64,000 nucleotides of DNA, taken from positions 585,214 through 649,213 of the forward strand of contig CAWKHA010000004.1 in assembly GCA_963849365.1 (NCBI GenBank). The letters run 5' to 3'. The translations under genes and the position numbers were made by a program. Below, in pieces: positions 17,001-61,303 of the stretch. Numbering within the stretch: position 1 is the first letter of the stretch; each line of letters starts with the position of its first letter. This DNA is from an uncultured Actinomycetota bacterium (GTDB lineage: Bacteria > Actinomycetota > Actinomycetes > Prado026). The notes under the pieces were generated by a model, which was not told the DNA's origin, did no database searches, and was given only the letters and a program-made list of their open reading frames with translations.

Positions 17001-17971
17001 TCAGCCGGCCAGCGCGCGAAGGTACGCGAGCGTCTGCGGGATCTGCGTCAGCGGCTGCGAGAAGCTCGCCGCAGCCGTGTTGTTGTACCAGGCAGCGCCG
17101 ATCGGCGGGTAGGGCGCCCACTGGTTGATCGTCGACTGGATGTACGCGATGTCCTTGGCGTCACCGGAGTGGTAGCCGAACTCCGGGATCGCCCATGGCT
17201 TGTGCTTGGCCTTCGCGTAGTTCATCGCACGCACCACGTTGTCGGGCACGTAGCAGTCGAAGCCGAGCACGTCGGCGGGCACGTACCAGCTCTCCGGGTC
17301 ACCGTGCGGCTTGCTCGGCGCGAGCACGTATCCCTCGAGGATGCTCATCGACTTCACCCGCGAGCTCGGGTACTTCTTCTCCACCGACAGCAGCTGCGCC
17401 CAGCCGGCGCGGTACTGCGCGGTGTTGAAGTGGTTGCTCGGGTTGTCCGCCTCGTGCTGCCAGTCCCAGTAGACCGTGCGGCCGGACTTGTTCCACGCCT
17501 GCAGAAGAGTGGCGAACTGCGCGTTGAACTTGCCGGAGGCGACCGTCGCCAGGCTGACACCGTCGAAGGACACCCAGATCTGGTAGCTCGACGGCAGCGC
17601 GGGCAGCGTGGTCTTCGGGGTGCTCCAGAAGACGCGACCGACGCGGGCGTTCGGGAACATCTTGATCGTCTGGGTGCTGTTGCCGCCCATCGAGGTCCCG
17701 AAGGCCACGCCACGTGCGGCCGCGGGGATCGTGTAGGACGTCGTGGCGCTGGTGGGCTCGCGGTGGCCGCCTTCGCGGTGGCCGCCTTCGCGGTCGTCGC
17801 GGTCGTGGCCGCCGGGGTGGCCGTGGCGCTGACCGCCGCCTTGTCCTTGTGATGCTTGTGCTTGTGCTTGTGGACCGTGGCGGCGTTGCTGGTGCTCACC
17901 AGCACCGGTATGAGCAGCGGGACGGTGAAGAGGGACAGGGGCGCGAGTCTGCGGAGTAGGGCGGTTGACAT
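17001..17971 (-). pseudogene. secreted GH26-like glycoside hydrolase, copy 1, disrupted by a 1-nt frameshift next to a tandem repeat
   Basis: Signal peptide + KHKHKHH + TAK-rich linker in the frame of track ORF 17354..18304. Catalytic domain (WQHEAD ... WAIPEFG) in the frame of ORF 17001..18311. Frame switch near 17745-17752. Confidence 0.55.
17753..17800. repeat. tandem 15-bp duplication GCGGTGGCCGCCTTC x2 followed by GCGGTCGTC/GCGGTCGTG x2 (encodes KAATAKAATA linker on minus strand)
   Basis: Seen directly; immediately adjacent to the frameshift position of GH26-like copy 1. Confidence 0.5.
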
Positions 17972-18373
17972 CCGGTGAACCTTCTCTGTCGGGGGCATTG
18001 CCTGTCTCGGATCCCGGGGTCCCGCCCTGGTACACCCGGGTGTCCGATCTGTCTCGGCGGACAGCATGCCACGACCACCGCAACCTTTCTGTGACCTGAG
18101 GGGCGTGACATGAGCCACGGGGCCCCCGGGCTTGTGACATCGGCGTGAATTCGAAACCCGTTGGCCGCACACGCCACACGGCGCCCTCCTCCCCCACCGC
18201 AGGCCGCAGGCGTGGCATGGTGTCCTCGGACCAGATAACGAACTGGTCACGAGGTGCGGCGGATGCCGCAGGATAGGGAGGCGCCGCTTCGACGACGCGA
18301 CCAAGGAACATCCGACCGGAGTCCGACGTACAAGGGCGGGACGACCGGCTCCCAGGCAGAAAAGGTCAGCCGT

Positions 18374-19452: not shown

Positions 19453-20400
19453 TCAGTGGGTGGGGTGCGCCCGGTAGTAGTCGCGCCAGATGAGCCGGTG
19501 CACCGGCACCCAGCGCGGGATCGACCGCAGGACGGGGATGAACGGCAGCAGCAGGAACCCCAGCGTCAGCAGCATCATCAGCCCCCAGACGTAGGCGTCC
19601 GCGCTGGCCCCGACCGTGGTGCTCTCGTCGCTGAACGGCTTGACCTGGTACCAGAAGGTGTACAGCCACAGCCACGACTGGCCGGGGTAGCTGCCCGTCT
19701 CGTTCATCATCCCCCACTGGTCCCCGCCCAGGTGCTGGCCGCGGGCCTGGTCCTCCAGGTACGTGCCGTCGGCGAGGAACAGCAGCGGGTAGGTGTAGTC
19801 GGTGTTGAAGAACTTCCCGCGCGCCTGCAGGACCCCGTCCAGCGAACCCTGCTGCGCCGCGTCCAGGGCCGCCGCCGTCAGCGCCGGTACCGGACCGTAG
19901 TCACCCGACGCGGCCTGGGTGTAGTCGCCCTCCGGTGCGTTGGCCACGGCGTCCGCGTACGCGCCCGCCCACGCTGCCTGCTGGTCCGCCGTCGCCTGGT
20001 TCCAGGTGTTGAGCGCCGCCGTGACCTCCGCCGACGCCGGCAGGCTGCTGAGCGGGTCGATCACGAAGTCCTTCGCGGCGTCGATCGGGATCCGGACGCC
20101 GGAGGCCTTCTGCAGGTCCAGCGGACCGAGCTTCTGGGTCGCGTCCGTCGTGTTGTACGGCGGCCCGTAACCCGCCGTGCCGCTGGTTCCGGCCAGCTCC
20201 TGTGCCGCCGTCGAGACGAAGTCCGACGGGGCCGCCTTGGCCCACGACTGCAGGGTGAGGCTCTTCTCGTCCGGTGACCCGAACGCGAACGCCAGCCCGA
20301 TGACGAGCGCCCCGACCACGACCAGGGCGATCACGAACTCCTTGACCAGGTCGTACTCCCGGGTCGCTCCCGACCACGGGCGGCTCGCGATGTCGGTCAT
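19453..20400 (-). CDS. bitopic/polytopic membrane protein encoded downstream of cytochrome b; C-terminal helix carries a cyt b C-domain-like VLRSIP segment
   Basis: 315 aa, N-terminal TM, ~230-aa extracytoplasmic domain, C-terminal hydrophobic LMMLLTLGFLLLPFIPVLRSIPRW; ATG overlaps cyt b stop (ATGA); no Cys. Confidence 0.55.
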   Translation of the reverse strand: MTDIASRPWSGATREYDLVKEFVIALVVVGALVIGLAFAFGSPDEKSLTLQSWAKAAPSDFVSTAAQELAGTSGTAGYGPPYNTTDATQKLGPLDLQKASGVRIPIDAAKDFVIDPLSSLPASAEVTAALNTWNQATADQQAAWAGAYADAVANAPEGDYTQAASGDYGPVPALTAAALDAAQQGSLDGVLQARGKFFNTDYTYPLLFLADGTYLEDQARGQHLGGDQWGMMNETGSYPGQSWLWLYTFWYQVKPFSDESTTVGASADAYVWGLMMLLTLGFLLLPFIPVLRSIPRWVPVHRLIWRDYYRAHPTH

Positions 20401-21083
20401 GACTGCACCTCCTGCGGCTCCGGGGAGGCCAGCGGTTCCTCGTGCGCCTCAGGCGCGTCCGTCGCGTCGATCGGCGGCACGACACCGCGCCTGCGGACCT
20501 GGAGCACGTGCCACACCACGACCGCACCGAGGACCAGCGGGAGCAGCGCGACGTGGAACAGGAGCATCTGGCCGACGTCGAGCACGTTGAACCACGCGCC
20601 GATCCCGACCGAGTTGAGCCCGTCCTTCGCCTGCGTCGAGATCCACTGCGCGTCGAAGTTCGTCTGGACGAGGTAGCCCGTGAAGGCCGTGCCGATCGAG
20701 GCCAGGAAGGCCACGACCCCCGTCATCCAGGTCGCGGCGCGGCGACCCCGCCACGACGCCATCCAGAACTTGCCCCACAGGTGCACGACCATGAACAGGA
20801 AGAACAGCTCGACGCTCCACAGGTGGGTGCTGTTCACGTAGTGGCCGACCGAGGACGTGTGGTACCACTGCGGACCCGCGAGGGTCAGGACCAGCCCTGA
20901 CACGATCACGAAGATGAGCGCAGCGATGGTCGCGACGCCGAAGACGTAGATCCACGAGGCGACGTACTCGGGCTGCTCCTCGGGGAGGAGCTTCTCCGGT
21001 GGGAGCGCACCGAAGAACCGGCGGCGGAGCCGGCCGGTCCAGGTGCGCGGCTGCGGCTCCGCGTGGTGCGTGGCCGCCGTCAT
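20397..21083 (-). CDS. cytochrome b, N-terminal (b6-like, four-helix, bis-heme) domain only
   Basis: 228 aa; four His in expected helices (HLWS...VVHLW; FHVALLP...WHVLQ). Cyt b N-domain consensus. C-terminal part of artefactual track ORF 20397..23597. Confidence 0.75.
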   Translation of the reverse strand: MTAATHHAEPQPRTWTGRLRRRFFGALPPEKLLPEEQPEYVASWIYVFGVATIAALIFVIVSGLVLTLAGPQWYHTSSVGHYVNSTHLWSVELFFLFMVVHLWGKFWMASWRGRRAATWMTGVVAFLASIGTAFTGYLVQTNFDAQWISTQAKDGLNSVGIGAWFNVLDVGQMLLFHVALLPLVLGAVVVWHVLQVRRRGVVPPIDATDAPEAHEEPLASPEPQEVQS

Positions 21084-21259
21084 GGCCGCCGCCTCCCCTT
21101 GGGGAACGGCAACGCGATCGCCAGGACGAACAGCACGATCCCGATCGCGATCATGACGAGGTTGCCGACCGAGATCTGGATGGGCCCCGCGTCCAGGTAG
21201 CGCGCGGGCTGGTCCAGGTTGCCGGTGAGCGCCCAGAGGGCGGAAACGGCGGAACTCAT
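21080..21259 (-). CDS. small single-TM membrane protein, first gene of the cytochrome b operon
   Basis: 59 aa MSSAVSALWALTGNLDQPARYLDAGPIQISVGNLVMIAIGIVLFVLAIALPFPKGRRRP; stop overlaps cyt b ATG (ATGA). Confidence 0.45.
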   Translation of the reverse strand: MSSAVSALWALTGNLDQPARYLDAGPIQISVGNLVMIAIGIVLFVLAIALPFPKGRRRP

Positions 21260-21338
21260 GGCGTCTCCTGACGTCTCGGTGCCATGCCCCCATGACGAGC
21301 AGCAGGCTAGGGGCGGGCCGCTGGGCGGCAATAGGGAC

Positions 21339-21373
21339 CAACGTCCCTTCCGGCCCCGCTGCCGGGGACGTTG
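21339..21373. promoter_or_regulatory. 9-bp inverted repeat CAACGTCCC ... GGGACGTTG (17-nt spacer) in divergent promoter region between the cyt b operon and the DUF4157 gene
   Basis: Seen in sequence; also nested GGGAC-N4-GTCCC. Confidence 0.35.
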
Positions 21374-21497
21374 CGGTGACGCGCCGGGACGACCCTGGAG
21401 GGCTCCGCCGGTCGCCGGACGAGGCGACCCTTGACGAGGACGCGCCTTGACCGAGCAGGCCCGAGCACGGCGAGCCGGCACCGACCACCCACTGGCC

Positions 21498-23672
21498 ATG
21501 AGCTCGCCGCATGACGCCCAGGAGCAGGAAGCAGAGGGCGCGGCCCGCGCTGTCGTCGGCGGCGGGTCGGCGCGTCCGGTGACCCGGCGGCCGGCGGCGG
21601 CCGGTGCTGCGGGCACGGCAGCCGCTGCCGCCGAGATCTCGGCGCAGATCGACCCGGCCCGTAGCGGCGGCGACGCGCTGCCGGGCGACGTCCGCGGTCG
21701 GATGGAGCGTGGCTTCGGCACGAGCTTCGGTGGCGTACGGCTGCACACCGGTGCCGACGCCGACCGGTTGGCCGGCTCCGCCTCCGCCCGCGCGGTCACC
21801 TCCGGCCCGGACGTGTTCCTGCGCTGGGGCGAGAACCGTCCCGCCAGCCCCGAGGGGCAGCGACTGCTGGCCCACGAGCTGGCGCACGTGGTCCAGCAGC
21901 GCGGTGGCGAGCGGGCCATCCACCGGCAGACCAACCCGCCGCCGACCGGTGGCGGTGGAGGCGGGACACCGGCAGCACGCGTGGTGTACATCGACGCCAA
22001 CGTCGTCATCCAGATCAACCGCGGCAACCAGCCGGTGGCCGACGCGCTCCGGCAGATGCGGGCATCGGGCGTCGACGTGCGCATATCGCCGTTCCAGCGC
22101 GACGAGCTGGTCCGCAACCCGGACATCCCCCGCACGGCCACCGCTCAGCGCCTCATGCTCGAGGAGATGAACGTCCAGACCGGGACGGCACCGACCCTCG
22201 CACAGCGGATCGACGTGGCTACCGAGGGCCAGACGGCCAGCGGCGGCAACATCATGCAGCTGCGCGACCAGCAGCTGGTCGCCTCCGCGCGGGCGGACGG
22301 CAGGAACGTCGAGATCTGGAGCCTGGACACGCCGTTCACGTCCAACTCCGGGCAGGTCGAGGGCACGTACGGCGTGCGCGTCGCGCCGGAGAGCCGGTTG
22401 CCCGTCGTCGCGGCGCGTCCGGACTACCGGGTGGGGCGGGCCCTGCTCGGGCTCGATCCCGTGGAGATCTCGCTCACCGGCGAGGTCACGCGCGGCACGC
22501 CGCCGAGCGGAGGCGGCGGCACCACCACGGGGGGCGGCGGACCGGCCGGAGGCGGTGTCCGACCCGTCCCGCCGACGCCGGGCAGCTCGGGCGCCGGGTC
22601 CACCGTCGGGACCGGAACCAGGGTCGTGGCCGGTGGTCTGGCCATCCTGATCGTTGTCAACGAGGTGCTCGGCGGGATCAACCGCGTCCGAAACGTCCAG
22701 CAGCAGAACATCGACATGGGAGAGGCGCGGCTGGCCTTCTGGCAGCGGTTCGGCGGCAGCCCCACCCGAGGCGTCTGGGACCAGACCGGGCAGCACCCGC
22801 TGCCGGCCGGCACGACGCCGGAGACCAGCGTCTTCGGGTCGCCGTCCTTCCCCTACGTCGTCGACATCGATGTCGCCGGCTTCCGCACCAGCCTGGCGAG
22901 CCACATCGACAGCTACCAGGACTTCTTGTACTTCCTCGACGCCGCCAAGACGCTGGGCACGATCGAGGAAGACCCGCTCATGCCCGACTTCCCCAACAGT
23001 GCGCAACGGGCCGCGAGCCGGCGCTACTACGCCTGGGTCAACAACCCCGACCGCGCCGGACGGCACAGCTACGACATCACGGACACGATCACCAGCGTGC
23101 GCGACGCCGCGCTCAACGAGCTCGGCGAGGGGATGCGCGACCAGGTGCGCGGGCTCTCGGCGGCGCAGCAGGGCAGCGTGTTCCGGCTGAAGGACCGGGC
23201 CGACACCCCGATCTACCGGTCGGCGGGGGGTGGCCAGCAGATCCTCACCGCGCAACAGGTCTTCGGGCCCGACCCGTGGGTCCGGACGACGGGTGAGCAA
23301 CGGGACGTGGGCGGCTGGTTCAGCACAGACATCAGGAAGCTCGTCGTGCCCGCGAACGCCGACGCCCAGCGCGCGGCGCTGGTCAGCGGGTACTGGGTCA
23401 AACAGCCCATCGAGGACACGCTCGACGAGGTCAAGGCCGGCGGACGGCCGGTCCTGGACCGGCAGCCCGCCACCGGTCCGGTCAACAGCTTCGTGGCCGG
23501 CCCCGAACCGGCGGGCCGGGACCGCTTCGGCCAGACGCGCTACTACCGTCATCCCGACCCCGACATCAGGTGGACCGTCGCGCTGGGCGAGCTGCACGAG
23601 TTCTGGGTCAAGGCGGGCGACCTCGAGAGCATCCCCGTGGCCGACGTCCAGGCCTACGCGGGCAGCCGGTAG
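21498..23672 (+). CDS. large multidomain protein: DUF4157 zincin-like (HExxH) module + PIN-like nuclease-like region + Gly-rich linkers/hydrophobic segment + ~330-aa unknown C-terminal domain
   Basis: RMERGFGTSFGGVRLHTGADADRLA ... RLLAHELAHVVQQRG; VVYIDANVVIQINRGN ... NVEIWSLDTPF; ATG 21498 (alternative weak TTG 21447). Confidence 0.7.
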   Translation: MSSPHDAQEQEAEGAARAVVGGGSARPVTRRPAAAGAAGTAAAAAEISAQIDPARSGGDALPGDVRGRMERGFGTSFGGVRLHTGADADRLAGSASARAVTSGPDVFLRWGENRPASPEGQRLLAHELAHVVQQRGGERAIHRQTNPPPTGGGGGGTPAARVVYIDANVVIQINRGNQPVADALRQMRASGVDVRISPFQRDELVRNPDIPRTATAQRLMLEEMNVQTGTAPTLAQRIDVATEGQTASGGNIMQLRDQQLVASARADGRNVEIWSLDTPFTSNSGQVEGTYGVRVAPESRLPVVAARPDYRVGRALLGLDPVEISLTGEVTRGTPPSGGGGTTTGGGGPAGGGVRPVPPTPGSSGAGSTVGTGTRVVAGGLAILIVVNEVLGGINRVRNVQQQNIDMGEARLAFWQRFGGSPTRGVWDQTGQHPLPAGTTPETSVFGSPSFPYVVDIDVAGFRTSLASHIDSYQDFLYFLDAAKTLGTIEEDPLMPDFPNSAQRAASRRYYAWVNNPDRAGRHSYDITDTITSVRDAALNELGEGMRDQVRGLSAAQQGSVFRLKDRADTPIYRSAGGGQQILTAQQVFGPDPWVRTTGEQRDVGGWFSTDIRKLVVPANADAQRAALVSGYWVKQPIEDTLDEVKAGGRPVLDRQPATGPVNSFVAGPEPAGRDRFGQTRYYRHPDPDIRWTVALGELHEFWVKAGDLESIPVADVQAYAGSR

Positions 23673-23694: not shown

Positions 23695-24735
23695 TCACAG
23701 CACGGCGACCGTGGTGCCGGGCGTGCTCGGCACGTCCCGGTCCATCGCAGCGAGCGCGTCCGGCACCTCGTCGAGCCTGATGCGCCGGCCGATCAGGGCG
23801 GAAGGGTCCAGCCGCCCCGACACGATGTCGGCGAGCATCGGGGCGTACTCCGGCGCCGGCATCCCGTGGCTGCCCAGGATCTCGAGCTCGCGGTACACCA
23901 CGTCGCCCATGTCGACCGGGGGATCGGCGTCGGGCCCGGTCAGCAGTCCGACCTGGACGTGCCGGCCGCCCGGGCGCAGGCTGGCGACACCGTCGGCCAG
24001 TAGAGCCGCTCGACCCAGGGCGTCGATGCTCGCGTGCGCTCCCTCGCCGGTCAGGTCCCGGGCGGCGCCGCGCACGTCGACCGCGGCCGGGTCGAGGGTG
24101 ACCTGGGCACCCATCGTCGTGGCCGCGGCACGGGCCGCGGGTGACGGGTCGACAGCGATGACCCGCGCGCCACGGCTGGCGGCGACCATCACCGCGGAGA
24201 GGCCGACTCCTCCGCAGCCGAGGACCAGCACCCAGTCCTGCGCCCCGACCCGGGCCTGCGAGACGACGGCCCGGTAGGCGGTCGCGAAGCGGCAGCCGAG
24301 CACGGCGGCCGTGACGTCGTCGAGCCCGGCAGGGAGTGCGACCAGGTTGACGTCCGCATGGTCGACCAGCACCCGCTCCGCGAAGGAGCCGTCCCTGGTG
24401 AACCCCGGCTGAGTCTGGCGGAGGCAGACCTGCGGGCGACCCTCCCGGCACAGCGCGCAGCTGCCGCACGCGTTCACGAACGGCGCCGTGACGCGATCGC
24501 CGGGGCGCCAGCCGACGACGTCCGGACCGACCTCGATCACCGCACCGGCGAACTCGTGCCCCGGCACGTACGGCACGGTCATGCTCGGGTCGTGCCCGCG
24601 CCAGCCGTGCCAGTCGCTCCGGCAGACCCCGGTGGCGCCGACCTCCACCACTGCACCGTGCGGCGGGCAGACGGGCTCGGACACCTCGTGCAGCCGAGGC
24701 CTGCGCCCGAACTCCTCGACGACCACCGCTTGCAC
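23695..24735 (-). CDS. zinc-dependent alcohol dehydrogenase (MDR family)
   Basis: 346 aa from GTG; GHEFAG, C-x2-C-x2-C-x7-C structural zinc motif, GCGGVG Rossmann. Confidence 0.8.
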   Translation of the reverse strand: MQAVVVEEFGRRPRLHEVSEPVCPPHGAVVEVGATGVCRSDWHGWRGHDPSMTVPYVPGHEFAGAVIEVGPDVVGWRPGDRVTAPFVNACGSCALCREGRPQVCLRQTQPGFTRDGSFAERVLVDHADVNLVALPAGLDDVTAAVLGCRFATAYRAVVSQARVGAQDWVLVLGCGGVGLSAVMVAASRGARVIAVDPSPAARAAATTMGAQVTLDPAAVDVRGAARDLTGEGAHASIDALGRAALLADGVASLRPGGRHVQVGLLTGPDADPPVDMGDVVYRELEILGSHGMPAPEYAPMLADIVSGRLDPSALIGRRIRLDEVPDALAAMDRDVPSTPGTTVAVL

Positions 24736-26217: not shown

Positions 26218-27504
26218 GTGAGCGATCACCCGCGCGCGCCCGAAGGGGCGCCTCCCAGGCGTCGGCCCGGGCTCACCGGTGATGGGCGCCGGGTGGTCTG
26301 GGCCCAGGCCCTCCGCGCGGCCGGGTACGGGTTCACGTCCGTGCTCCTGGGCCGCTTGCTGGCGGACCGTGGTGCCTCGCCGACCGTCGTCGGGCTGCTG
26401 CTCGCCGCGCTGGTGGCCGGGTCGGCGATCTCGTCGCTGGTGGTCGGCCGCTTCGGCGACTTGGTGGGTCGCCGCCGCTCGTACGCGCTGATCTCCCTGG
26501 GGATCGCCGGCACCGGCGTGGTGGTGGCTCTCGGCGCCCCGGTATGGGTGATCGCCGTGGTCGCCCTGACCGGGACACTGTCCACCGACGTCGTCGACAA
26601 CGGGCCCGCGACCACGTTGGAGCAGGCGATGCTCGCGGCCGAGGACGGCGGCAGGTCGGGGGCCCGGGCGCTCGGGGTCTACAACGCCGTCGGCTACGCG
26701 GCGGGTGCCCTGGGCGCGTTGGCGCAAGGTGGTCTGTCGCTGCTGACGAACGGCCCGATGAGCGCGGTGGCGTTCGTGGTCCTGGTCCCGGTAGGCTTGG
26801 CCGGGGCGGCGCTGGCGTGGTCGTTGAGTGCTCGGGTCGAACCCGAGCCGCCCCAGCGCGACCGGCCCGACGGGGCGCGCCGCGAGCGTCGCCGGTTGGG
26901 GCCGTCCCGCCGGCGTGTGTTCGGGCTCGCGGGACTGTTCGCCGTCGACGCTGCCGGTGGCGGGTTGATCACCACGACGTTCCTGTCCTACTACCTGACC
27001 AGCCGCTACGGTGCGGCCCCCTTCGGCCTGGGGGTGCTGTTCTTCAGCATCACCGTCGTGCAGGCCGTCAGCGTCCTGCTCGCGCCGCGGTTGGCCGACC
27101 GGTTCGGGCTGATCCCCACCATGGTCGGCACGCACCTGCCGAGCAACCTGCTGCTGGCCGCTGCCGCCTTCGCTCCGACCCTGGCGTGGGCGTCGGTCCT
27201 GCTGCTGGCACGGAGCCTGCTGTCGCAGATGGACGTCCCGACCAGGCAGGCTCTGGTGATGGCCGTCGTCACTCCGGCGGAGCGCACCCCCGCCGCCGCG
27301 ACGACGAACGCCGCCCGGTACGTCGTGCGGCCGCCCAGCGCGACCTGCTGGAGGCCGGCAGCACATCGGCTCCACCCTCCCAGCCGAACGGGCGCCGACG
27401 CCGACGCCCGACGCCCAGGGCGACAGGAGCCCTTGACTCAGCGCTGTCTGAGCCGGGCGACCGCACCGGCCGTCACCGCGACGAACACGACGTCGCGGTT
27501 GTAG
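26218..27504 (+). CDS. MFS transporter with degenerate C-terminus (only ~10 TM helices; possible pseudogene)
   Basis: 10 predicted TM then ...TNAARYVVRP followed by non-hydrophobic Arg/Pro-rich tail in all three frames. Confidence 0.6.
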   Translation: MSDHPRAPEGAPPRRRPGLTGDGRRVVWAQALRAAGYGFTSVLLGRLLADRGASPTVVGLLLAALVAGSAISSLVVGRFGDLVGRRRSYALISLGIAGTGVVVALGAPVWVIAVVALTGTLSTDVVDNGPATTLEQAMLAAEDGGRSGARALGVYNAVGYAAGALGALAQGGLSLLTNGPMSAVAFVVLVPVGLAGAALAWSLSARVEPEPPQRDRPDGARRERRRLGPSRRRVFGLAGLFAVDAAGGGLITTTFLSYYLTSRYGAAPFGLGVLFFSITVVQAVSVLLAPRLADRFGLIPTMVGTHLPSNLLLAAAAFAPTLAWASVLLLARSLLSQMDVPTRQALVMAVVTPAERTPAAATTNAARYVVRPPSATCWRPAAHRLHPPSRTGADADARRPGRQEPLTQRCLSRATAPAVTATNTTSRL

Positions 27505-30002
27505 TCGCTGTGGCCACGGATCGGCGGGTCCTCGATGTCACCCCGGGGCGGTGCCAGCCCGGTGGGGTCGACCAGTGGTCGTTCGTCTACGTGCAGCTCG
27601 CCACCGACGTTGGGCACGACAACCTTGACGGGGTAGCCGAGCGGGTCCGTCGGGCGGTACAGGCTGCGCCAGCGCAGCCACGTCGGATGACTCACCGTGC
27701 CGACCAGCTTTCCGCCGATCGCCTCCAGCTCGGTGGGACCGAAGAAGAACGGGAAGACACGGCCGTACAGCGCCCTGAGCTGGGTGCCGTAGCTCAGCAG
27801 GAACACCCTGGCCTGCTTGCTCTCAGGGAGCTGCAGGATGGTGGCCACGGCGAGCACGGCGCCCTGGCTGTGCCCGGACAGGACATAGCCGGGGCGGTGG
27901 TCGACGTCGTTCGCGATGCGGGTGACCAGCTGGGGGACGCAGCGCTCCGCGTAGCAGGGCGGAGCCAGCGGGTGCCCGGCGCGTGGCCAGAACGTCGCGA
28001 GGTCCCAGATGATCGCGACACCTCGGCGCCGCGGGTCCGCGCGGTACACCAGCGTGCCGAGCAGCATGACGAACAGCAGCAACAGCAGGCTGAGCCGCAC
28101 ACCGACGTTGCGTACCGGTCCGGCCCACGGACCTGCCCATCCCACATCCACACGAGTCGTCGCTACGGAGATGCCGAGCACGACCTCCACGACCGCGAAG
28201 AGCATCAGCACGCCGATGTACGTCAGCAGCCGGTCCTGCATGAAGTCGTGGAAGGCACGGTGCCTCGTCACGGCCAGCTCGCGCCGTCGTTCGTGCGTGG
28301 TCAGCCCGGTGGCACCCCGCGCCTCGCGGTAGGCGCGCCCTCGGCGTGAGATGAAGTACATGGTCCAACCGGCCGCGATCACGACGGCGACCAGGAAGAA
28401 CGGCAGCCCGAGAGCCGCCCACTGGAACGGAAGCGGCAGCTCGACCCGCGGTCTCCCGTCGGGTCCGACGAGCCCGTTGCTCAGCCAGTCGGCTGCGAAG
28501 AACAGGACTCCCGAGGAGTAGAGCAGGGCGAGCAGCCAGCCGAGCATCATCAGGAGCGGACCACCCAGCAACCGCCAGGCCTGACCTCCCGCGTCGGCAC
28601 CGCCGGTGCCGGTGGTGGGGACGAGCAGGACCAGCGCACAGAGCACAGTCAGCGGGACGGCGACGACCCAGAACACGGCGTGCCCGCCGAGCAGCTCGGA
28701 CCGCCCCGATGCTGCGTCGAGCTTCAGCCAGGACGACAACGGCAGGCCGTCAACCGTGTTCGCTGCGACGAACCAGAACATCAGCAGCAGGACGAGCACC
28801 AGGCCGACGGTGAACGGGGACGTCCAGCGCTGCCCGGCAGCCAGACCGATCAGGAGCAGGAACTGCGCGGCGAACAGCAGCAGCACCGACTCGGAGTAAC
28901 CGGGGAAGTCGAGGTGACCCTTGCGGTCCAGCCCGATGCCCGGAAGAGCGCAGAGGTAAATCACCGTCGCCGGCACGGCGAGCGCGAAGCCGAGTATGAC
29001 CAGAGCGCGCATCGCCTGCCAGGACCCGGAAGCCTCACCCGGTGCCTGCCTCACCGTGACGTCGCTCGGCAGCAGCGACGTGGCGCACAGGAGCAGGACC
29101 AGGACCAGCGCGACGACGATCGCGCGCGCGATCCATCGACCGGCCGGCTCGGGGACGGTCGCCCGTCCGAGCCCGACGGGCGCGAGGGTCATGAGACACG
29201 CCGCCGATATTCCGGCGACGAGGTGCAGCCAGGCGAGCCTGCGCGCCTGGGTCTCACCGCGCCAGAACCACCTGCTCTCGAACGCGGACACCTCGGTCGG
29301 CTCGGACGGCACAGGTCCTGCCGGCCCGGTGTGCTGCACCGTGGCCTCGTACTGGAACGAGCGACGGGCGACCAGCCACACCAGCAGCATGACCGCGAGC
29401 GGGACGGCCAGCGCCGCTGCCAGCGGTCGGGTGCCGTGGCTCCACCACCCATCGTGCAGGAAGGCCAGCTGCGTGACCCACCGGACCTGCGTCGGGTCGT
29501 CGTACCCGAGCCACTGCCAGGCCAGCAGGTCGACCGACACGCCGGTCGCGGCCAGGCTCAGCGTGACGGTCAGGCTCAGCGCGAAGAGCCGCGAGAAGAA
29601 CGACGCGACGCCGGTCGTCTCCGAGAGAGTCCAGCTCTGCCTGCCCGGCAGGTTCTTCCTGGCCCAGAACCCGACGTTGGCGAAGGCGAACGGCAGCAGG
29701 GTCATCCAGAGCCCGCGGCTCAGGTCCTTCTTCGCGCGTACCCCGCCGGTCAGCTGCCCCCAGCTGTACGCCTGGGTGTCGACCGTCGGATCGAGCGGAC
29801 GGACCCGTCGGTAGAACGCCGTCGAGTCGTCCCCGGCCACGCGCTCGATCTGGCTCTCGTCCTGCAGGCCGAGCGTGAACTGCGGTGGCGTGTTGGAAAC
29901 CCCGTGGATCCGGATCTCCAGGACGGGCGGGGCGGCTGTACCCGCTCCCGCGCCCGGGACTTCGCCCGCTCCAGCAGACATCGGCCCCCCGAAGATGATC
30001 AC
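27438..30002 (-). CDS. polytopic membrane protein carrying a split alpha/beta-hydrolase fold (N-terminal HG oxyanion segment, ~12 TM insert, C-terminal GHSQG/Asp/His)
   Basis: 854 aa; EIRIHGVSNTPP near N-terminus; GYVLSGHSQGAVLA and RGHSDY near C-terminus; GTG start. Confidence 0.6.
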   Translation of the reverse strand: MIIFGGPMSAGAGEVPGAGAGTAAPPVLEIRIHGVSNTPPQFTLGLQDESQIERVAGDDSTAFYRRVRPLDPTVDTQAYSWGQLTGGVRAKKDLSRGLWMTLLPFAFANVGFWARKNLPGRQSWTLSETTGVASFFSRLFALSLTVTLSLAATGVSVDLLAWQWLGYDDPTQVRWVTQLAFLHDGWWSHGTRPLAAALAVPLAVMLLVWLVARRSFQYEATVQHTGPAGPVPSEPTEVSAFESRWFWRGETQARRLAWLHLVAGISAACLMTLAPVGLGRATVPEPAGRWIARAIVVALVLVLLLCATSLLPSDVTVRQAPGEASGSWQAMRALVILGFALAVPATVIYLCALPGIGLDRKGHLDFPGYSESVLLLFAAQFLLLIGLAAGQRWTSPFTVGLVLVLLLMFWFVAANTVDGLPLSSWLKLDAASGRSELLGGHAVFWVVAVPLTVLCALVLLVPTTGTGGADAGGQAWRLLGGPLLMMLGWLLALLYSSGVLFFAADWLSNGLVGPDGRPRVELPLPFQWAALGLPFFLVAVVIAAGWTMYFISRRGRAYREARGATGLTTHERRRELAVTRHRAFHDFMQDRLLTYIGVLMLFAVVEVVLGISVATTRVDVGWAGPWAGPVRNVGVRLSLLLLLFVMLLGTLVYRADPRRRGVAIIWDLATFWPRAGHPLAPPCYAERCVPQLVTRIANDVDHRPGYVLSGHSQGAVLAVATILQLPESKQARVFLLSYGTQLRALYGRVFPFFFGPTELEAIGGKLVGTVSHPTWLRWRSLYRPTDPLGYPVKVVVPNVGGELHVDERPLVDPTGLAPPRGDIEDPPIRGHSDYNRDVVFVAVTAGAVARLRQR

Positions 30003-43536: not shown

Positions 43537-44562
43537 CTAGGCGAGTCGGCCGAGGAGTTCTCCACGGCCGGTCACGTTTGCTTTGCGGTAGATGGAGCGC
43601 AGATGGCCGTTGGCGGTCTGCGGGGATAGCTGGAGTCGGGTGGCGATGTGCTTGCCGGGCAGGCCGTCGGCAACGAGCTGTAGGACCTGAGCCTCACGGG
43701 GAGTCAACCCGAGCCAGGCGTCGACCGCTGGCAACAGCTGGCTGAGGCTGGCTGGCTGAAGGATCACCGCGATGTCGGCGGAGCCCACATCGATCCGGTT
43801 CCCTTGCAGTGCAACCCAGGCGCCGCCACTCGTACGGATGCGACACAGGCTCTGATCTTTGCTGACGCTTGTTCGAGTGGCGTGAGCGACCTCGTAGACC
43901 ACCCGCAGCATGTCGTGCATGGTCATCTCGTCCGACCCGCCGGCGCACAGGGCCTGCAGCCAGCTACGTGCCTCTTCGCTCATCGAGACGATGTTGTTGT
44001 TCGGGTCCACGAGCACGATGCCGGATGGAGGCACCTGCAGACGGGAAGGAAGCTTGCGGAGCGGGCGCTGGCGTACTGCCGTGCTCAAGGCAGGAGCCAG
44101 CCTTGTGGCGAGGACAGCGTCATCGGTGCTGAAGGGGTGCCGGGGATCCTGGCGGAACAACGAGAGCGCCCCCCACCAGCCCCGGTCGGTGCGGAGGGCG
44201 AGACGAAGCTCGGACCGGAAGCCGGCGGGCCGCAGAATGTCGTGCAGGCGTGGGCTGGCGGGCTCCCTGGCGCTGCCCCCGAGGATGCCCGCCGGCACCC
44301 TGCCCCTGGCCAGTTCCGCGTAGCGGTTGACGTCATGCTCACGCGTCTCGTTGTGGGATAGCCGGGCCACGACGCCGTCGAGGCCGTGCCGCGAGAGCAT
44401 GAACGAGCGAAGCCCGCTTACCGGGTCCACGCCGAACAGGCAGTAGCCGTCGTACGGCAAGATAGCCGCCACGGCTGCCAGCGCCTCATCGGCAAAGTCC
44501 GCGTCCGAGGCGTATCCGCCCGCCTGCGCAATGGTGCGGGCCGCGCGCTGGAACGCGTCCAT
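43537..44562 (-). CDS. LuxR-family transcriptional regulator with N-terminal sensor-like domain
   Basis: C-terminal HTH LTPREAQVLQLVADGLPGKHIATRLQLSPQTANGHLRSIYRKANV. Confidence 0.7.
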   Translation of the reverse strand: MDAFQRAARTIAQAGGYASDADFADEALAAVAAILPYDGYCLFGVDPVSGLRSFMLSRHGLDGVVARLSHNETREHDVNRYAELARGRVPAGILGGSAREPASPRLHDILRPAGFRSELRLALRTDRGWWGALSLFRQDPRHPFSTDDAVLATRLAPALSTAVRQRPLRKLPSRLQVPPSGIVLVDPNNNIVSMSEEARSWLQALCAGGSDEMTMHDMLRVVYEVAHATRTSVSKDQSLCRIRTSGGAWVALQGNRIDVGSADIAVILQPASLSQLLPAVDAWLGLTPREAQVLQLVADGLPGKHIATRLQLSPQTANGHLRSIYRKANVTGRGELLGRLA

Positions 44563-45596: not shown

Positions 45597-45990
45597 GCGA
45601 GGCCGTGCCGATGGCCTCAGGTCCTAACCAGATCGATGGTCCGCCCCGCGGTTTGTGTCGGCGTCGCAGAAGCACCGAAGTGCCCAGTTCTAGGGCGCCC
45701 GCCGCGAGCATCATCCGGCAGCAAGGATGACGTGGCGCTGCCGAGGTAGTGATCGTTTTGGTGGCAGCGTGTGGGTGAGCGTCCTGGCCGGGTCTGACTC
45801 GAATCTTCCGGCTGACGTCCTTTGGGCCTGTCTTGCGAATGATCTGTCGGCCCGGTTTGGTCGCTCACCCGACACCGACCGGACGGGGCACGTGACCTAC
45901 TAGGAGCCTGCCGTTACCAGGCTCTTTGCTGTCCTGTCCGCCGTCCCGGCCGGCGCGGTGTCAGTCCTTCCTGCGACGAAAGGGTTGACG

Positions 45991-47031
45991 ATGAACAGCA
46001 TCGCAAGTGTGACCGGAGGTGTCGACACCCACCTGGATGTGCATGTCGCCGCCGCGTTGGATGAGCGCGGCGGGCTGCTGGGGACCGGGTCGTTCCCGAC
46101 CACCCCGGCCGGGTACCGGTCGCTGGTCGGGTGGCTGCGCGGGTTCGGTGAGGTCAAGCTGGTCGGGGTCGAGGGCACCGGCAGCTACGGCGTCGGCTTG
46201 GCACGACATCTGCGCGCCGAGGCCATCGCAGTCGTCGAGATCGACCGACCCAACCGGCAGAAGCGACGGCACAGCGGTAAGTCTGACTCCCTGGACGCGA
46301 TCTCGGCGGCCCGGGCCGCGCACAGCGGCGACGCGACCGGTGCGGCGAAGACCAGAGACGGAAACGTTGAGGCCATCAGGGTTCTGCGGGTCGCCAGGGT
46401 CAGCGCACTCAAGGCCCGGACCCAGGCACTGAACCAGCTGCGGTCACTGATCTGCACCGCCCCCGACGAGCTCCGCGCCCGGCTGCGAGACCTCGGTGTC
46501 GCCGAGCTGGCCGTCACCGCCGCCGCCCTGCGGCCTGGGACGACACCCGGGGTGGACGCCGCGACCAAGCTCGCGATGCGCAGCCTCGGCCGGCGGGTGA
46601 AGGCCCTGGAGGTCGAGGTCGCCGACCTGGACGCGGTGCTCGGTCCGCTGGTCGCCGCCACCGCACCCGCACTGCTCGCCCACCACGGCGTCGGCACCGA
46701 CACCGCAGCCGCCTTGCTCGTCGCCGCCGGCGACAACCCGAGCCGGCTACGCACCGAAGCCACCTTCGCCCGCCTGTGCGGCGCCGCACCGATCCCGGCC
46801 AACAGCGGCAAGACCCAGAACCGGCACCGGCTGCACCGCGGCGGAGATCGACAAGCCAACAGCGCCCTTTGGCACATCGCCCTGACCCGCATGAGTAGCC
46901 ACCCCAGGACCAGGGCCTACGTCGAACGCCGTCTCGACCAAGGGCTGACCAAGCGAGACATCATGCGCTGCCTCAAGCGATACATCGCACGCGAGCTGTT
47001 CCCCGACCTACCCCACGAAATCCTCGCTTGA
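45991..47031 (+). mobile_element. IS110-family insertion sequence transposase gene (DEDD-type), element A
   Basis: MNSIASVTGGVDTHLDVHVAAALD ... C-terminal conserved IS110 region; ~370 bp non-coding left end upstream. Confidence 0.8.
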
Positions 47032-49194: not shown

Positions 49195-49436
49195 CGTGCC
49201 GCGCGGCGTGCACCGAAGTGCCTACCTGTTGACTTCGGGCAGCTCCTGGTCGGCAGGCTGGGGGTCAGATGGTCAGCGGGTCGCTCTCGAAGTGCCTGCC
49301 CACGGAGGCTTCGTGTGGCTCTCGAACGGAGTGCGTCCGCCGGCCATCGTTGACGGGATGTGGCTCGAGAGGGGTCTGCGTCGCCCGAGGTAGGCATGCC
49401 CTCCCGTCGTCCCTTCGAAGACAAGGAGACTGGCGG

Positions 49437-50591
49437 ATGGCTGCTGTAGTGATCGGTGTGGATCCGGCGAAACGTTCGCACACGGTTGAGGTGATCGACG
49501 GCCGGGAGCACGTGCTGGCGACGGGACGGTTCGAGAACAACAACGACGGCTATCGGGCGATGCGGGTGCTGGCCAACCGGTGGCCGGCCCGGGTGTGGGC
49601 AGTGGAGGGCGCGTCCGGTGTGGGCCGGCAGCTGGCCCAGCGGCTTGTGTCCGATGGCGAACGCATCCTTGATGTGCCCTCGAAGCTGTCGACGCGGGTC
49701 AGGGCGATGGACACTGGGCATGGCCGTAAGAACGACCCGGCGGACGCTCACGCTGTCGCGGTCGTGGGGCTGCGCACGACCGATCTTCGCGAGGTCAAGT
49801 CCGATGACCAGATGGTCGCGTTGCGACTGCTGTCCGCCCGCCGCCGTGACCTGGTCCGCTCTCGCACGCAGGCGGTGAACCGGCTGCACCAGACGTTGAT
49901 GGAGCTGATTCCCGCTGGTGCACGCAAGGATCTGTCCGCGACCGCCGCGAGGGCCCTGATCGCCACGGTCCGCCCACGCGACGTGGCCGGCAAGACTCGA
50001 CGGCAGGTCGCGGTCGACCTGATCGACGACGTGGCCGTAGCGGACCGCAAGCTCAAGGCCGTCGAATCCAGCATCAAGGCGGCCGTCGCAGCGACCGGCA
50101 CCACACTGACCGACATCGTCGGGATCGCATCGATCACGGCCGCGGTGATCCTCGGTGAGGTCGGCGACGTCGCCCGGTTCGCCAACGCTGACAACTTCGC
50201 CAGCTACACCGGCACCGCACCCCTGGAGGTCTCCAGCGGCGAGGTCGTCCGGCACCGCCTGAACCGAGCCGGGAACCGGCGACTGAACTCCGCGTTGCAC
50301 GTCGCCGCCCTGGCCAACAAACGCCACGACTCCCGCGGCAAGGCCTACTACGAGAAGAAGCGCGCCGCCGACAAGGGCAAGAAAGGCGCCCTGCGCTGCC
50401 TGAAACGACGCCTGGCCGACGTCGTCTTCCGCACCATGCTCACCGATCAGGCGTTAAGGAACCCGGGAGGGCAATTGGGGGCGACACTCACATCCAGCGC
50501 GGCTGACCTGATCCCCATGGCCAACACTTCGGAAAAGCCACAACCCGGGTCCAGGACCGACCATACGCCCGCAACCGCAGCCGCGTCTTGA
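49437..50591 (+). mobile_element. IS110-family insertion sequence transposase gene, element B (different sequence from element A)
   Basis: AAGGAG RBS; MAAVVIGVDPAKRSHTVEVIDG ... Confidence 0.8.
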
Positions 50592-56849: not shown

Positions 56850-56922
56850 ACAACGTGGGTGGGCCGCCTGGGGATCGAACCCAGAACCCGCGGATTAAAA
56901 GTCCGCTGCTCTGCCAGTTGAG
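56850..56922 (-). tRNA. tRNA-Lys (anticodon TTT), 73 nt, CCA not encoded
   Basis: rc sequence GGGCCGTTAGCTCAACTGGCAGAGCAGCGGACTTTTAATCCGCGGGTTCTGGGTTCGATCCCCAGGCGGCCCA folds as cloverleaf with anticodon loop CTTTTAA. Confidence 0.85.
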
Positions 56923-57323
56923 CTAACGGCCCGGGATACAGCTAACACTCCGTCAAAGCCTCCCATGAAGGCTCCCAGGAGCCCCACAGTGTGACCGACA
57001 ACGACTCATGCACTTGACGGTCTCTGGTCGGGTGCCTGACGTCGCGGCTGCCGTCCAGGCTGCCGAGATCCTCACCGGCCGGCAGGGGAGTCCGCCGCGA
57101 GTCCGCGGCTGGGCACTGACCGCCGGGTCCGCCGTATGCGCCTTCAGCCGCCGGCCGGTCGTTTCACCCGGGTGAGCCACGGTCGGGGTGATCCGACCAC
57201 CTGGCCCTTGTCGAAGGATCGGGTCGGCGGGTCGGGCCAACCGCGCCGGCCTGTTCGAGCTCCGGCCCCCGGTCTTGCTCAAGACGACCCGATCGGGCGA
57301 GGCACATGAGAGAAGGACGCGCC

Positions 57324-59995: not shown

Positions 59996-61303
59996 TCAGG
60001 CGACCCGAGGCTGCCCGGCTCCGAGGTCCGGAGAGTCCGGGGCACGGTCGGTTCCCCGACTGCCAGGAAGGCCCGGGGCGCCCGCCCCGACCAGGACCTG
60101 GACGACGGCGAGCAGCACCAGCAACAGCAAGGCGGACCAGCCCAGCCGCGACACCGACACGTCGTTCCCCCACAACAGGACGACGACACCCAGGACACCG
60201 ACGGCGACCCGCAGCCATCCGGCGTTCGCGCGAACCCAGCGGCCGGCCGGGGCCACAGGCCCGTCGGCGAGCTTCCCGCCGACCCCTTCCAGCCCGTCCC
60301 GGACGCTGGTGCGTACCGCGGTTCCGGCCCGGTTCGGTCCGGCGAACAGCCCTGCGAGGATCAACAGGACGCCCAGCCAGCACATCACGTGCCAGCCGCG
60401 CTCGAGGTAGCTGAGCATGGTGTCGTAGAACACCGAGCTGGCCGGGCCGAACACGGTTCCGGCGAGCTCGTTGATGAACAGCTGGCGGGCGACCGACAGC
60501 GCAAGGGCCAGCAGCACTCCGTTCGCCGCCAGGAGCACGCCTACGGTCACGACCATGCGCGGGCGACGTCGGGCGAGCAGGACGGCGGCCAGGTACAGCA
60601 CAGCGACGAGAATGATGAGCCAGCGCGCGACCGGGTTGGCGAAGGCGTAGATGGTACGCACCTGTCGCAGCTGCGGGGCGTCCAGCAGCACGATCTGCTT
60701 GTCCACGTTCGGGACGGGGATGTTCTCGACGATCGTCAGGCCGCGGTCGACGAGGCGCTGCTTGACCTGCTCGATGACTACGGACAGGTCCAGCACGACC
60801 TGGTCGCCCTGCAGGGACACCGCGCCGCTGTCGTCTCCCTGGAGCAGCCGGACCAGGGATTGCTGTGCCTTGGTGTTCAGCTGCACCCACAGGTCGGCGA
60901 AGGTGTCGGAGGCGACGAAGTTGCGGACCTGGGTCTCGATGAGGCCATCGATGGCACCGGACAGCGGGCCGACCAGCTTCGCCAGCCTGGGGCGGTCGGT
61001 GATGACTCCCGCGAACACGTCGTCGAGGATCGCCTGCACGTCGACCTGCTTCTGGATCGCGTCGGTGACGTTCGTGACGATCGCGTCCTGGACCTGCGGG
61101 GAGTCGATCAGCGGGCCGACGGTGTCCAGGTAGCGCTGGGTGTCGTTCAGGGTCCGCTGGCCCCAGAACGCCAGAACGGCCGGGGTCGTGAGCAGTGCGG
61201 CGATGACCAAGCATATGACCGCGCTGGCCGCCTTGCCGCGACCCCGGTGCGCGGCGGGCGTCGCCGGGCCCGGCTCGGCGTCGACTGGTGCTGAGCTGGA
61301 CAC
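59996..61303 (-). CDS. integral membrane protein, hypothetical (N-terminal TM, large extracytoplasmic domain, C-terminal TM bundle)
   Basis: 435-aa ORF with coding-like composition. Confidence 0.5.
   Translation of the reverse strand: MSSSAPVDAEPGPATPAAHRGRGKAASAVICLVIAALLTTPAVLAFWGQRTLNDTQRYLDTVGPLIDSPQVQDAIVTNVTDAIQKQVDVQAILDDVFAGVITDRPRLAKLVGPLSGAIDGLIETQVRNFVASDTFADLWVQLNTKAQQSLVRLLQGDDSGAVSLQGDQVVLDLSVVIEQVKQRLVDRGLTIVENIPVPNVDKQIVLLDAPQLRQVRTIYAFANPVARWLIILVAVLYLAAVLLARRRPRMVVTVGVLLAANGVLLALALSVARQLFINELAGTVFGPASSVFYDTMLSYLERGWHVMCWLGVLLILAGLFAGPNRAGTAVRTSVRDGLEGVGGKLADGPVAPAGRWVRANAGWLRVAVGVLGVVVLLWGNDVSVSRLGWSALLLLVLLAVVQVLVGAGAPGLPGSRGTDRAPDSPDLGAGQPRVA

Follow-up and report, generated by a model that had tools for sequence, protein, structure and literature searches.

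A 64,000-nucleotide stretch of DNA from an uncultured actinobacterium (Actinomycetota, Prado026; contig CAWKHA010000004.1), referred to here as the window, carries a gene whose product is probably a cargo or effector of a phage-tail-like contractile injection system (CIS), either of the extracellular type (eCIS, PVC-type) or of the cytoplasmic type known from filamentous bacteria. It would be a remote member of the DUF4157 effector class, a placement that is based on the identities of its domains, the linkage of its relatives to CIS genes and the literature on DUF4157 cargos. From the N-terminus, the protein comprises a low-complexity region, a zincin-like DUF4157 domain, a Gly-rich linker, a PIN-like segment, a second linker followed by one hydrophobic stretch, and a C-terminal region of about 330 amino acids. 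This order of parts had been given in a first-pass annotation made from the letters alone, and it held throughout. The effector class is already known; novelty, to the extent that the literature could be searched, lies in two points, the use of a PIN-fold module by an injected or polymorphic effector and the C-terminal family. The gene could now be annotated as coding for a DUF4157-class injection-system effector instead of a mystery protein.

Domain architecture and reading frame

Residues are numbered throughout according to the 724-amino-acid form. Pfam recognised the DUF4157 domain, also named eCIS_core, along nearly the complete profile; the score of 99 bits compares to a cut-off of 22 bits and the zinc-binding motif HELAH is intact, so the first-pass call of a DUF4157 module was upheld. 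The low-complexity residues 1-60 ahead of the domain contain the motif SSPHDAQEQEAEGAAR, which aligned with the ortholog motif VSxPGDxxEQEADRVA. By analogy to the AlgoCIS cargo study, this region is a candidate loading sequence.

The AlphaFold model of residues 161-330 (pLDDT 87.9, pTM 0.81) had VapC15, FitB, VapC11, VapC20 and PAE0151 as top Foldseek matches in the PDB, all with a probability of 1.00. The highest TM score, 0.74 normalised on the target, was obtained for VapC15 (4chg_A, E 7e-5). Four acidic residues, D166, E203, D257 and D277 (D17, E54, D108 and D128 in module numbering), did not vary among 18 sequences, with identities as low as 40 %, nor in the alignment of 12 orthologs. In the model they are located at the end of β1, in the helix that follows β2, where the helix preceding β4 begins and just behind β4, and this placement relative to strands and helices fits the catalytic residues of PIN domains. 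On the strength of the model we accept the PIN fold as demonstrated: the PIN-like segment of the first-pass annotation stands by fold and invariant acidic residues, without any support from hidden Markov models (HMMs). A nuclease activity, namely that of an RNase, may be inferred from the fold and the acidic tetrad. The module has in addition a conserved C-terminal extension of about 45 amino acids (VAPES..DYRVGRxLLGLxPVEISLTG). A PDB profile search with the module found no PIN entry, and a profile search for further relatives of the module returned only two fragments, probably because it was swamped by the Gly-rich flanks. Alignment of the PIN profile by hhalign to two proteins with the C-terminal domain, P0014 (from Massilia antarctica) and P0020, detected a PIN module in neither. 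A VapB-type antitoxin gene was not found; neither the window nor the orthologous loci have a small conserved open reading frame (ORF) up- or downstream of the gene.

Behind the second linker follow residues 376-394 (VVAGGLAILIVVNEVLGGI), the sole hydrophobic stretch of the protein, which is without a signal peptide. They form a candidate membrane-inserting helix. The C-terminal region was modelled with a pLDDT of 84.6 and a pTM of 0.78, confidently except for this leading helix. The first-pass annotation could place the last 330 amino acids in no family, and they are still unplaced: whole-protein scans against Pfam, NCBIfam, PHROGs and PADLOC gave the DUF4157 domain only, and the C-terminal domain had no relative in the PDB by sequence, profile or fold and none in BFVD. 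An exhaustive profile search among 1.84 billion representatives yielded 93 clusters, in nearly all of which the domain occupies the extreme C-terminus, and no link to other families. Many polar residues are invariant. Judged by these searches, the C-terminal domain is a new, uncharacterised family.

The reading frame itself is genuine, as had been assumed: it is a listed frame with an exact match among public proteins (P0001) and a coding-type GC content at codon positions 1, 2 and 3 of 0.72, 0.55 and 0.91 for 21447..23672. Public gene calls start at ATG 21498. The 741-amino-acid form is nevertheless plausible, since GAGGA is located 8-12 nt 5' of TTG 21447 and conserved N-terminal residues are already present ahead of the ATG in the ortholog alignment. 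With a GC content at third codon positions (GC3) of about 0.92 the gene equals the genes of its host, and thus it is, by codon usage, a resident rather than a recent arrival. An overlapping ORF of 1066 amino acids on the minus strand (20397..23597) was rejected as a shadow frame, genuine only at its 3' end (20400-21083), which is the cytochrome b gene.

Relatives, injection-system loci and module exchange

The combination of domains had been regarded as an orphan, which was not borne out. At least 12 full-length metagenomic orthologs with 55-73 % identity have the whole architecture in common and define a conserved family; the presence of the whole layout in 12 independent metagenomic orthologs also ruled out an assembly fusion of separate genes. 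The family is encoded in or beside CIS clusters, as are proteins related to either sub-module. Hallmark genes of CIS were present within 10 kb in at least 12 loci of relatives and absent from two, the window and locus L002; the loci of the remaining relatives were too short or unresolved for this tally. The ortholog P0003 (73 % identity) is encoded inside a complete CIS cluster, with Pvc16_N and AAA+WHD genes on one side and genes for sheath, gp19 tubes, CIS_tube, VgrG, PAAR, gp25 and baseplate J on the other. The gene of P0010 (L001/L017) adjoins those of an Afp15-like AAA+WHD ATPase, a second DUF4157 protein and a Peptidase_S74 protein of the tail-fibre type, while three DUF4157 paralogs and an AAA ATPase are encoded near P0004 (L003). 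At L016 (64 % identity, 71.5 % GC) an Afp15-like ATPase, gp25 and Tail_P2_I are adjacent. Relatives with about 50 % identity are located beside Afp15-like ATPases as well, at L020 together with Tail_P2_I and at L018 with other CIS-associated genes. The exceptional locus L002 holds a remote, N-terminally truncated copy (P0011) beside a transposase fragment.

The linkage extends to proteins that share only one of the two modules. DUF4157-PIN proteins with other C-termini are encoded directly after an AAA+WHD gene (L013) or in a cluster with Pvc16_N, base_V, gp25 and baseplate J (L014). Proteins with the C-terminal module (C-module) are the last genes of eCIS operons in Massilia antarctica and Duganella; Tail_P2_I and an ATPase occur at L008, and L011, where the C-module gene P0121 lies 3' of an AAA+WHD gene, also has a BTAD regulator and two more genes for DUF4157 proteins. 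In Duganella (L007, 5311-9819), the gene before the C-module protein codes for a DUF4157 protein of 1503 amino acids ending in Ntox4. By BLAST, this gene is a homologue of the DUF4157 gene for 1540 amino acids that occupies the corresponding position in Massilia. These pairs suggest, by analogy, a two-cargo arrangement like that of Cgo1/Cgo2. An all-against-all BLAST of the flanking ORFs of 12 loci revealed no immunity candidate; only DUF4157 paralogs and CIS genes recurred. The lack of an immunity gene had been presented as notable in the first-pass annotation, but effectors of this kind usually have none (Zhang 2012, PMC3482391; Geller 2021, PMC8213781).

Both modules were found in other combinations. 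At least six unrelated C-termini occur behind the DUF4157-PIN cassette, all of them after a Gly-rich linker, and in at least 4/6 of these alternative C-termini a hydrophobic segment follows the linker (Kyte-Doolittle 1.24-1.82 over 19 residues). Conversely, a Pfam scan of 45 C-domain proteins detected DUF4157 in 24, a Pput_2613-like deaminase in three, a metallo-beta-lactamase (MBL) fold in two, and a DddA-like deaminase and Ntox4 in one each. The module of helix and C-domain was always joined via a Gly-rich linker and the hydrophobic helix with its N-E pair. At locus L011 (9862-11050), P0121 is a stand-alone C-module ORF with in-frame Gly/Pro-linker coding DNA ahead of it, situated right behind the stop codon of a DUF4157 gene for 657 amino acids that is not related to it. 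It resembles a displaced orphan cassette of the kind known from contact-dependent inhibition (CDI) and Rhs loci. Because the PIN and C-modules occur apart with varied partners, and because of this displaced cassette, the Gly-rich linkers appear to act as recombination joints, at which the two modules recombine independently.

Further elements were observed among the C-module proteins. Most of those without PIN (P0014-P0016, P0128, P0140-P0162 and others) carry a conserved, unannotated β-rich element about 100 amino acids before the linker, with the consensus NFSG..GGR..GE.VV.G..W.V.D..TG.PIAGV.EGG.WYRV...D..G. Five proteins without DUF4157 (P0136, P0143, P0146, P0152 and P0167) have a common N-terminus, MR(T/I)xCH(V/I)PI(T/A)VR..G.PT..QL.AL, which precedes a deaminase-type (PCxxC) segment in P0136 and P0143 and may serve as another kind of module for loading or trafficking. 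An identification of P0136, from Amycolatopsis nigrescens, with the effector EAT11 was rejected, as no HExxH motif is visible in its sequence.

The hosts of the orthologs range from 41 % to 73 % GC and the genes from 0.30 to 0.92 in GC3, at about 60-70 % protein identity (L003, L006, L001, L016 and the window). The closest genome match was a metagenome-assembled genome of the Caldilineales (Chloroflexota). This indicates a spread of the gene across phyla with a subsequent adaptation to each host. Since orthologs of about 64 % identity are adapted to hosts of such different GC3, the transfers would be old and repeated, under strong constraint. The C-terminal domain, likewise found in hosts from 41 % to 73 % GC, can be described as a small and widely transferred family without known fold relative.

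Genes of the window

As the first-pass annotation had stated, the window lacks injection-system genes and immunity candidates, according to Pfam, tblastn and the comparison of flanking ORFs. A tblastn search with every CIS protein collected from the related loci matched only the DUF4157 domain of the gene itself, and the gene-neighbourhood comparison identified no small ORF of the window that is co-conserved with the family. The convergent ADH gene and the divergent genes for a small membrane protein and a cytochrome b were confirmed (Table 1). The divergent set of three genes looks, from its predicted products, like a split cytochrome b-like module; for none of the three products was a named relative found at 90 % identity. 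It is separated from the gene by an intergenic region of 238 bp with a perfect inverted repeat of 9 nt (CAACGTCCC / GGGACGTTG), for which a rough estimate gave about 0.1-0.2 occurrences by chance in the region; the repeat is thus near chance expectation and of doubtful significance. Rfam and promoter/terminator scans of the locus found nothing. Of the shared inverted-repeat promoter region described in the first-pass annotation, the repeat is present, and a functional implication was not retained, because the cytochrome b neighbour was absent from every related locus annotated or compared. Judged by these comparisons, its proximity is coincidental.

The Pfam matches among the large ORFs of the window comprise cytochrome b, ADH, PAP2, MFS, MMPL, a LacI regulator, a histidine kinase, a GerE/GAF regulator, an acyl-CoA dehydrogenase, a sulfatase-PKD protein and two IS110 transposases. 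Between 34000 and 50000 the GC content is 0.66-0.68, compared to 0.72-0.75 upstream; this stretch with the IS110 genes may be an acquired island. Three large minus-strand ORFs with coding-type GC3 had no Pfam match (27441-30002, 854 amino acids; 17004-18311, 436 amino acids; 59999-61303, 435 amino acids), and the products of the first two had no match in PADLOC either. A tRNA-Lys(UUU) at 56858-56932 on the minus strand is the sole Rfam/ARAGORN feature of the 64 kb.

Table 1. Features of the gene, its product and its surroundings; coordinates are positions in the window
Feature	Residues	Coordinates	Strand	Basis or remark
Whole ORF		21447..23672	+	741 aa from TTG 21447, 724 aa from ATG 21498; stop codon 23670-23672
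Low-complexity Ala/Gly-rich N-terminus	1-60	21498..21677	+	63% G/P/S/T/A
DUF4157 / eCIS_core zincin-like domain	61-137	21678..21908	+	PF13699, E 1.6e-28, 99 bits, profile 2-78/79
HELAH zinc-binding motif	126-130	21873..21887	+	Intact HExxH
Gly/Pro-rich linker 1	138-160	21909..21977	+	Composition
PIN-fold domain (predicted)	161-330	21978..22487	+	AlphaFold model and alignment; D166, E203, D257, D277 invariant
PIN acidic codons	D166; E203; D257; D277	21993-21995; 22104-22106; 22266-22268; 22326-22328	+	
Gly/Pro/Thr-rich linker 2	331-374	22488..22619	+	89% G/P/S/T/A; apparent recombination joint between modules
Hydrophobic helix	376-394	22623..22679	+	Kyte-Doolittle 2.15 over 19 residues; near-invariant N-E pair
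C-terminal alpha/beta domain (~330 aa)	398-724	22689..23669	+	Profile search, AlphaFold model
9-nt perfect inverted repeat		21339-21347 / 21365-21373	.	Divergent intergenic region
59-aa membrane protein		21083-21259	-	Divergent three-gene set 19456-21259
Cytochrome b N-terminal-type protein		20400-21083	-	PF13631/PF00033
315-aa protein, terminal hydrophobic segments		19456-20400	-	No Pfam match
Convergent ADH gene		23698-24735	-	22 nt after the stop codon of the gene
GerE/GAF regulator		43540-44562	-	Next to the IS110 genes
IS110-family transposase genes		45958-47028 and 49269-50588	+	Pfam

Proposed mode of action, alternatives and known systems

For the probable role as a remote effector the following course is proposed. 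The short, presumably disordered N-terminus and the adjoining DUF4157 domain would form the recognition and processing end, by which an AAA+ ATPase of the Afp15/Pvc15 type would load the protein, either into the lumen of the tube or on the spike, and contraction would eject it. The PIN domain with its intact D-E-D-D tetrad would act as a metal-dependent ribonuclease warhead and the hydrophobic helix would bring the released protein to a membrane. The C-terminal domain would be a second payload module, and the Gly-rich linkers would serve as joints for the exchange of modules between effectors. In the source genome, which may encode an injection system, the gene would be located away from the respective locus, as a remote effector gene. 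Several observations speak against such a role. No structural or ATPase gene of a CIS was detected by Pfam on large ORFs or by tblastn in the 21 kb upstream and the 40 kb downstream. Residues 1-60 are shorter than the N-terminal region of most orthologs, hence the loading signal might be truncated, and DUF4157 was dispensable for loading in AlgoCIS, which makes its part in the mechanism uncertain. Of the two domains named in the first-pass annotation, DUF4157 was matched in the whole protein and PIN was not, neither in Pfam nor in NCBIfam at E≤1; an hhalign comparison of the PIN profile to a VapC sequence was not significant, with three of the four acidic residues aligned (D7/E42/D98). The role of the C-terminal domain has no support from any homology. 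As to the location, 88 % of the eCIS-associated toxins (EATs) are encoded within ten genes of the operon, leaving about 12 % remote, and by this analogy the position of the gene is unusual, not unprecedented.

A tentative alternative concerns the C-terminal module, in which helix and domain would constitute a portable delivery device for toxins that target nucleic acids, responsible for membrane insertion or entry into the cytoplasm, and not a warhead. The C-module remains the same behind different upstream toxins (PIN, Pput_2613-like, DddA-like, Ntox4, MBL), the helix with the conserved N-E pair is always ahead of it, and a single inhibitor-type domain could not suit so many toxins. Precedents exist, as transmembrane helices may enhance the toxicity of Tme (PMC11126660) and Sle1 was reported to translocate to lipid membranes (PMC13277306). 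However, most family members have no other recognised toxin domain and carry the module in the extreme C-terminal position of a toxin, the many invariant polar residues suggest an enzyme, the displaced copy P0121 acts like an orphan toxin cassette, and a fold similarity to known translocation domains was not found. If the C-module helps cargo to reach or cross membranes, it would be of interest for engineering eCIS particles for protein delivery. It is rather unlikely that both ideas apply jointly, the C-module as an entry device fused behind varied nucleic-acid warheads and PIN nucleases deployed as injected weapons; if true, the layout would be the reverse of the usual polymorphic toxin, and the use of PIN nucleases, for a long time believed to be limited to toxin-antitoxin systems, would extend to injected weapons.

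Other explanations dispense with delivery by an injection system. The protein could be a self-acting, single-pass, membrane-anchored toxin of regulated cell death or abortive infection, with the N-terminus inside and the C-terminus outside, whose C-terminal domain senses the exterior and whose cytoplasmic PIN domain kills or arrests the producer without any injection machine. The single hydrophobic helix without signal peptide, the lack of CIS and immunity genes nearby, the host-like codon usage of a resident gene and the partner domains of the C-module, which all target nucleic acids and thus act in the cytoplasm, are compatible with this; moreover, the literature describes a cytoplasmic CIS of Streptomyces that mediates self-death. 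We consider a self-acting toxin improbable, as the relatives of both modules are overwhelmingly located in CIS clusters, PADLOC gave no match and the specificity of DUF4157 for eCIS is very high (odds ratio 2614, PMC8213781). Quite improbable is also a decaying relic, i.e. an effector gene that stayed behind, without function, once its injection system had been lost or relocated: the remote location, the IS110 transposases in the same window, the short N-terminal region and the truncated remote copy P0011 next to a transposase fragment would fit, but the frame of 741 codons, the HELAH motif and the D-E-D-D tetrad are intact and the GC3 of 0.92 is that of host genes. A functional coupling to the divergent cytochrome b operon, e.g., as an assembly or turnover protease of a respiratory complex, could be read from the common 238-bp intergenic region with its inverted repeat. 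It was already disfavoured and is hardly credible with a repeat near chance expectation and no cytochrome b gene in any related locus annotated or compared. The assignment as an injection-system effector is preferred.

The closest known layout is that of the AlgoCIS cargos Cgo1/Cgo2 (PMC8894135; bioRxiv 10.64898/2026.05.27.728243), which consist of a disordered N-terminal domain, DUF4157 and a C-terminal domain and fill the tube lumen; their N-terminal domain is the loading signal. Relatives of the window protein are encoded, like cgo1/cgo2, beside an Afp15-like AAA+ ATPase. In contrast to these cargos, the window gene lies outside a CIS cluster, the protein has a PIN module, a hydrophobic helix and a novel domain in its C-terminal part, and sequence similarity is confined to DUF4157. 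In general, DUF4157 is a core marker of eCIS located N-terminal to toxins, many of which are without immunity genes (PMC8213781; PMC3482391). EATs such as the EAT11 deaminase of A. nigrescens and EAT14 (PMC8213781; Danov 2024, PMC11297309) share with the window protein the N-terminal DUF4157, long linkers, modular toxins and a frequently absent immunity gene. A. nigrescens also encodes a deaminase joined to the same C-terminal module (P0125/P0136). The model for EATs has the toxin last, whereas in the window protein PIN is internal and a conserved unannotated module comes last. Most EAT genes are no more than about ten genes away from a CIS operon, which applies to at least 12 loci of relatives and not to the window gene. 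Since 983 of 1130 predicted DUF4157 EATs are without a second annotated domain, a further unannotated module is to be expected and unsurprising.

With type II toxins of the VapC/FitB group the PIN module shares the fold and the four acidic residues at canonical positions. It differs by the lack of a Pfam PIN match and of a VapB-type antitoxin, by the extension of about 45 amino acids and by its position inside a 724-amino-acid effector architecture. In eCIS operons, PIN domains that Pfam recognises are under-represented (odds ratio 0.18) and PIN domains were stated in 2012 as not known in polymorphic toxins (Zhang 2012, PMC3482391), and in the searchable literature no paper was found that pairs PIN domains with injected or polymorphic effectors. 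A cryptic PIN-fold module in injected effectors, missed by current HMMs, would contrast with both the survey and the depletion. Among the tape-measure-related CIS effectors of Streptomyces, Tme (PMC11126660) combines DUF4157, a nuclease and hydrophobic helices as the window protein does; Sle1 (PMC13277306), itself devoid of DUF4157, binds Sle2, a distinct small protein with this domain. The mechanisms proposed for Tme and Sle1 both include membrane targeting (PMC11126660, PMC13277306). Unlike these, the window protein has a single helix, globular modelled modules and no apparent coiled-coil or tape-measure region, and its gene does not hold the place of the largest ORF ahead of baseplate genes, which the window lacks; the nuclease of Tme is EndA-like, the putative one of the window protein PIN-fold.

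Polymorphic toxins with a PVC-metallopeptidase domain (Zhang 2012, PMC3482391) are similar in the N-terminal position of this domain, which is identical to DUF4157 and was proposed as a releasing peptidase, in their recombining cassettes and in the lack of immunity genes in many members; the PIN and C-modules of the window protein, however, match no toxin-domain model in Pfam, where domains of that survey such as Ntox4, Pput_2613-deam and DddA-like are included. A classical polymorphic toxin needs a downstream immunity gene, whereas 22 nt separate the window gene from the convergent ADH gene and none was present across the 12 loci. It also has a variable C-terminal toxin behind a constant trafficking region. 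In the family described here, in which either module may be the toxin, DUF4157-PIN is paired with at least six C-termini and the C-module with many N-terminal parts.

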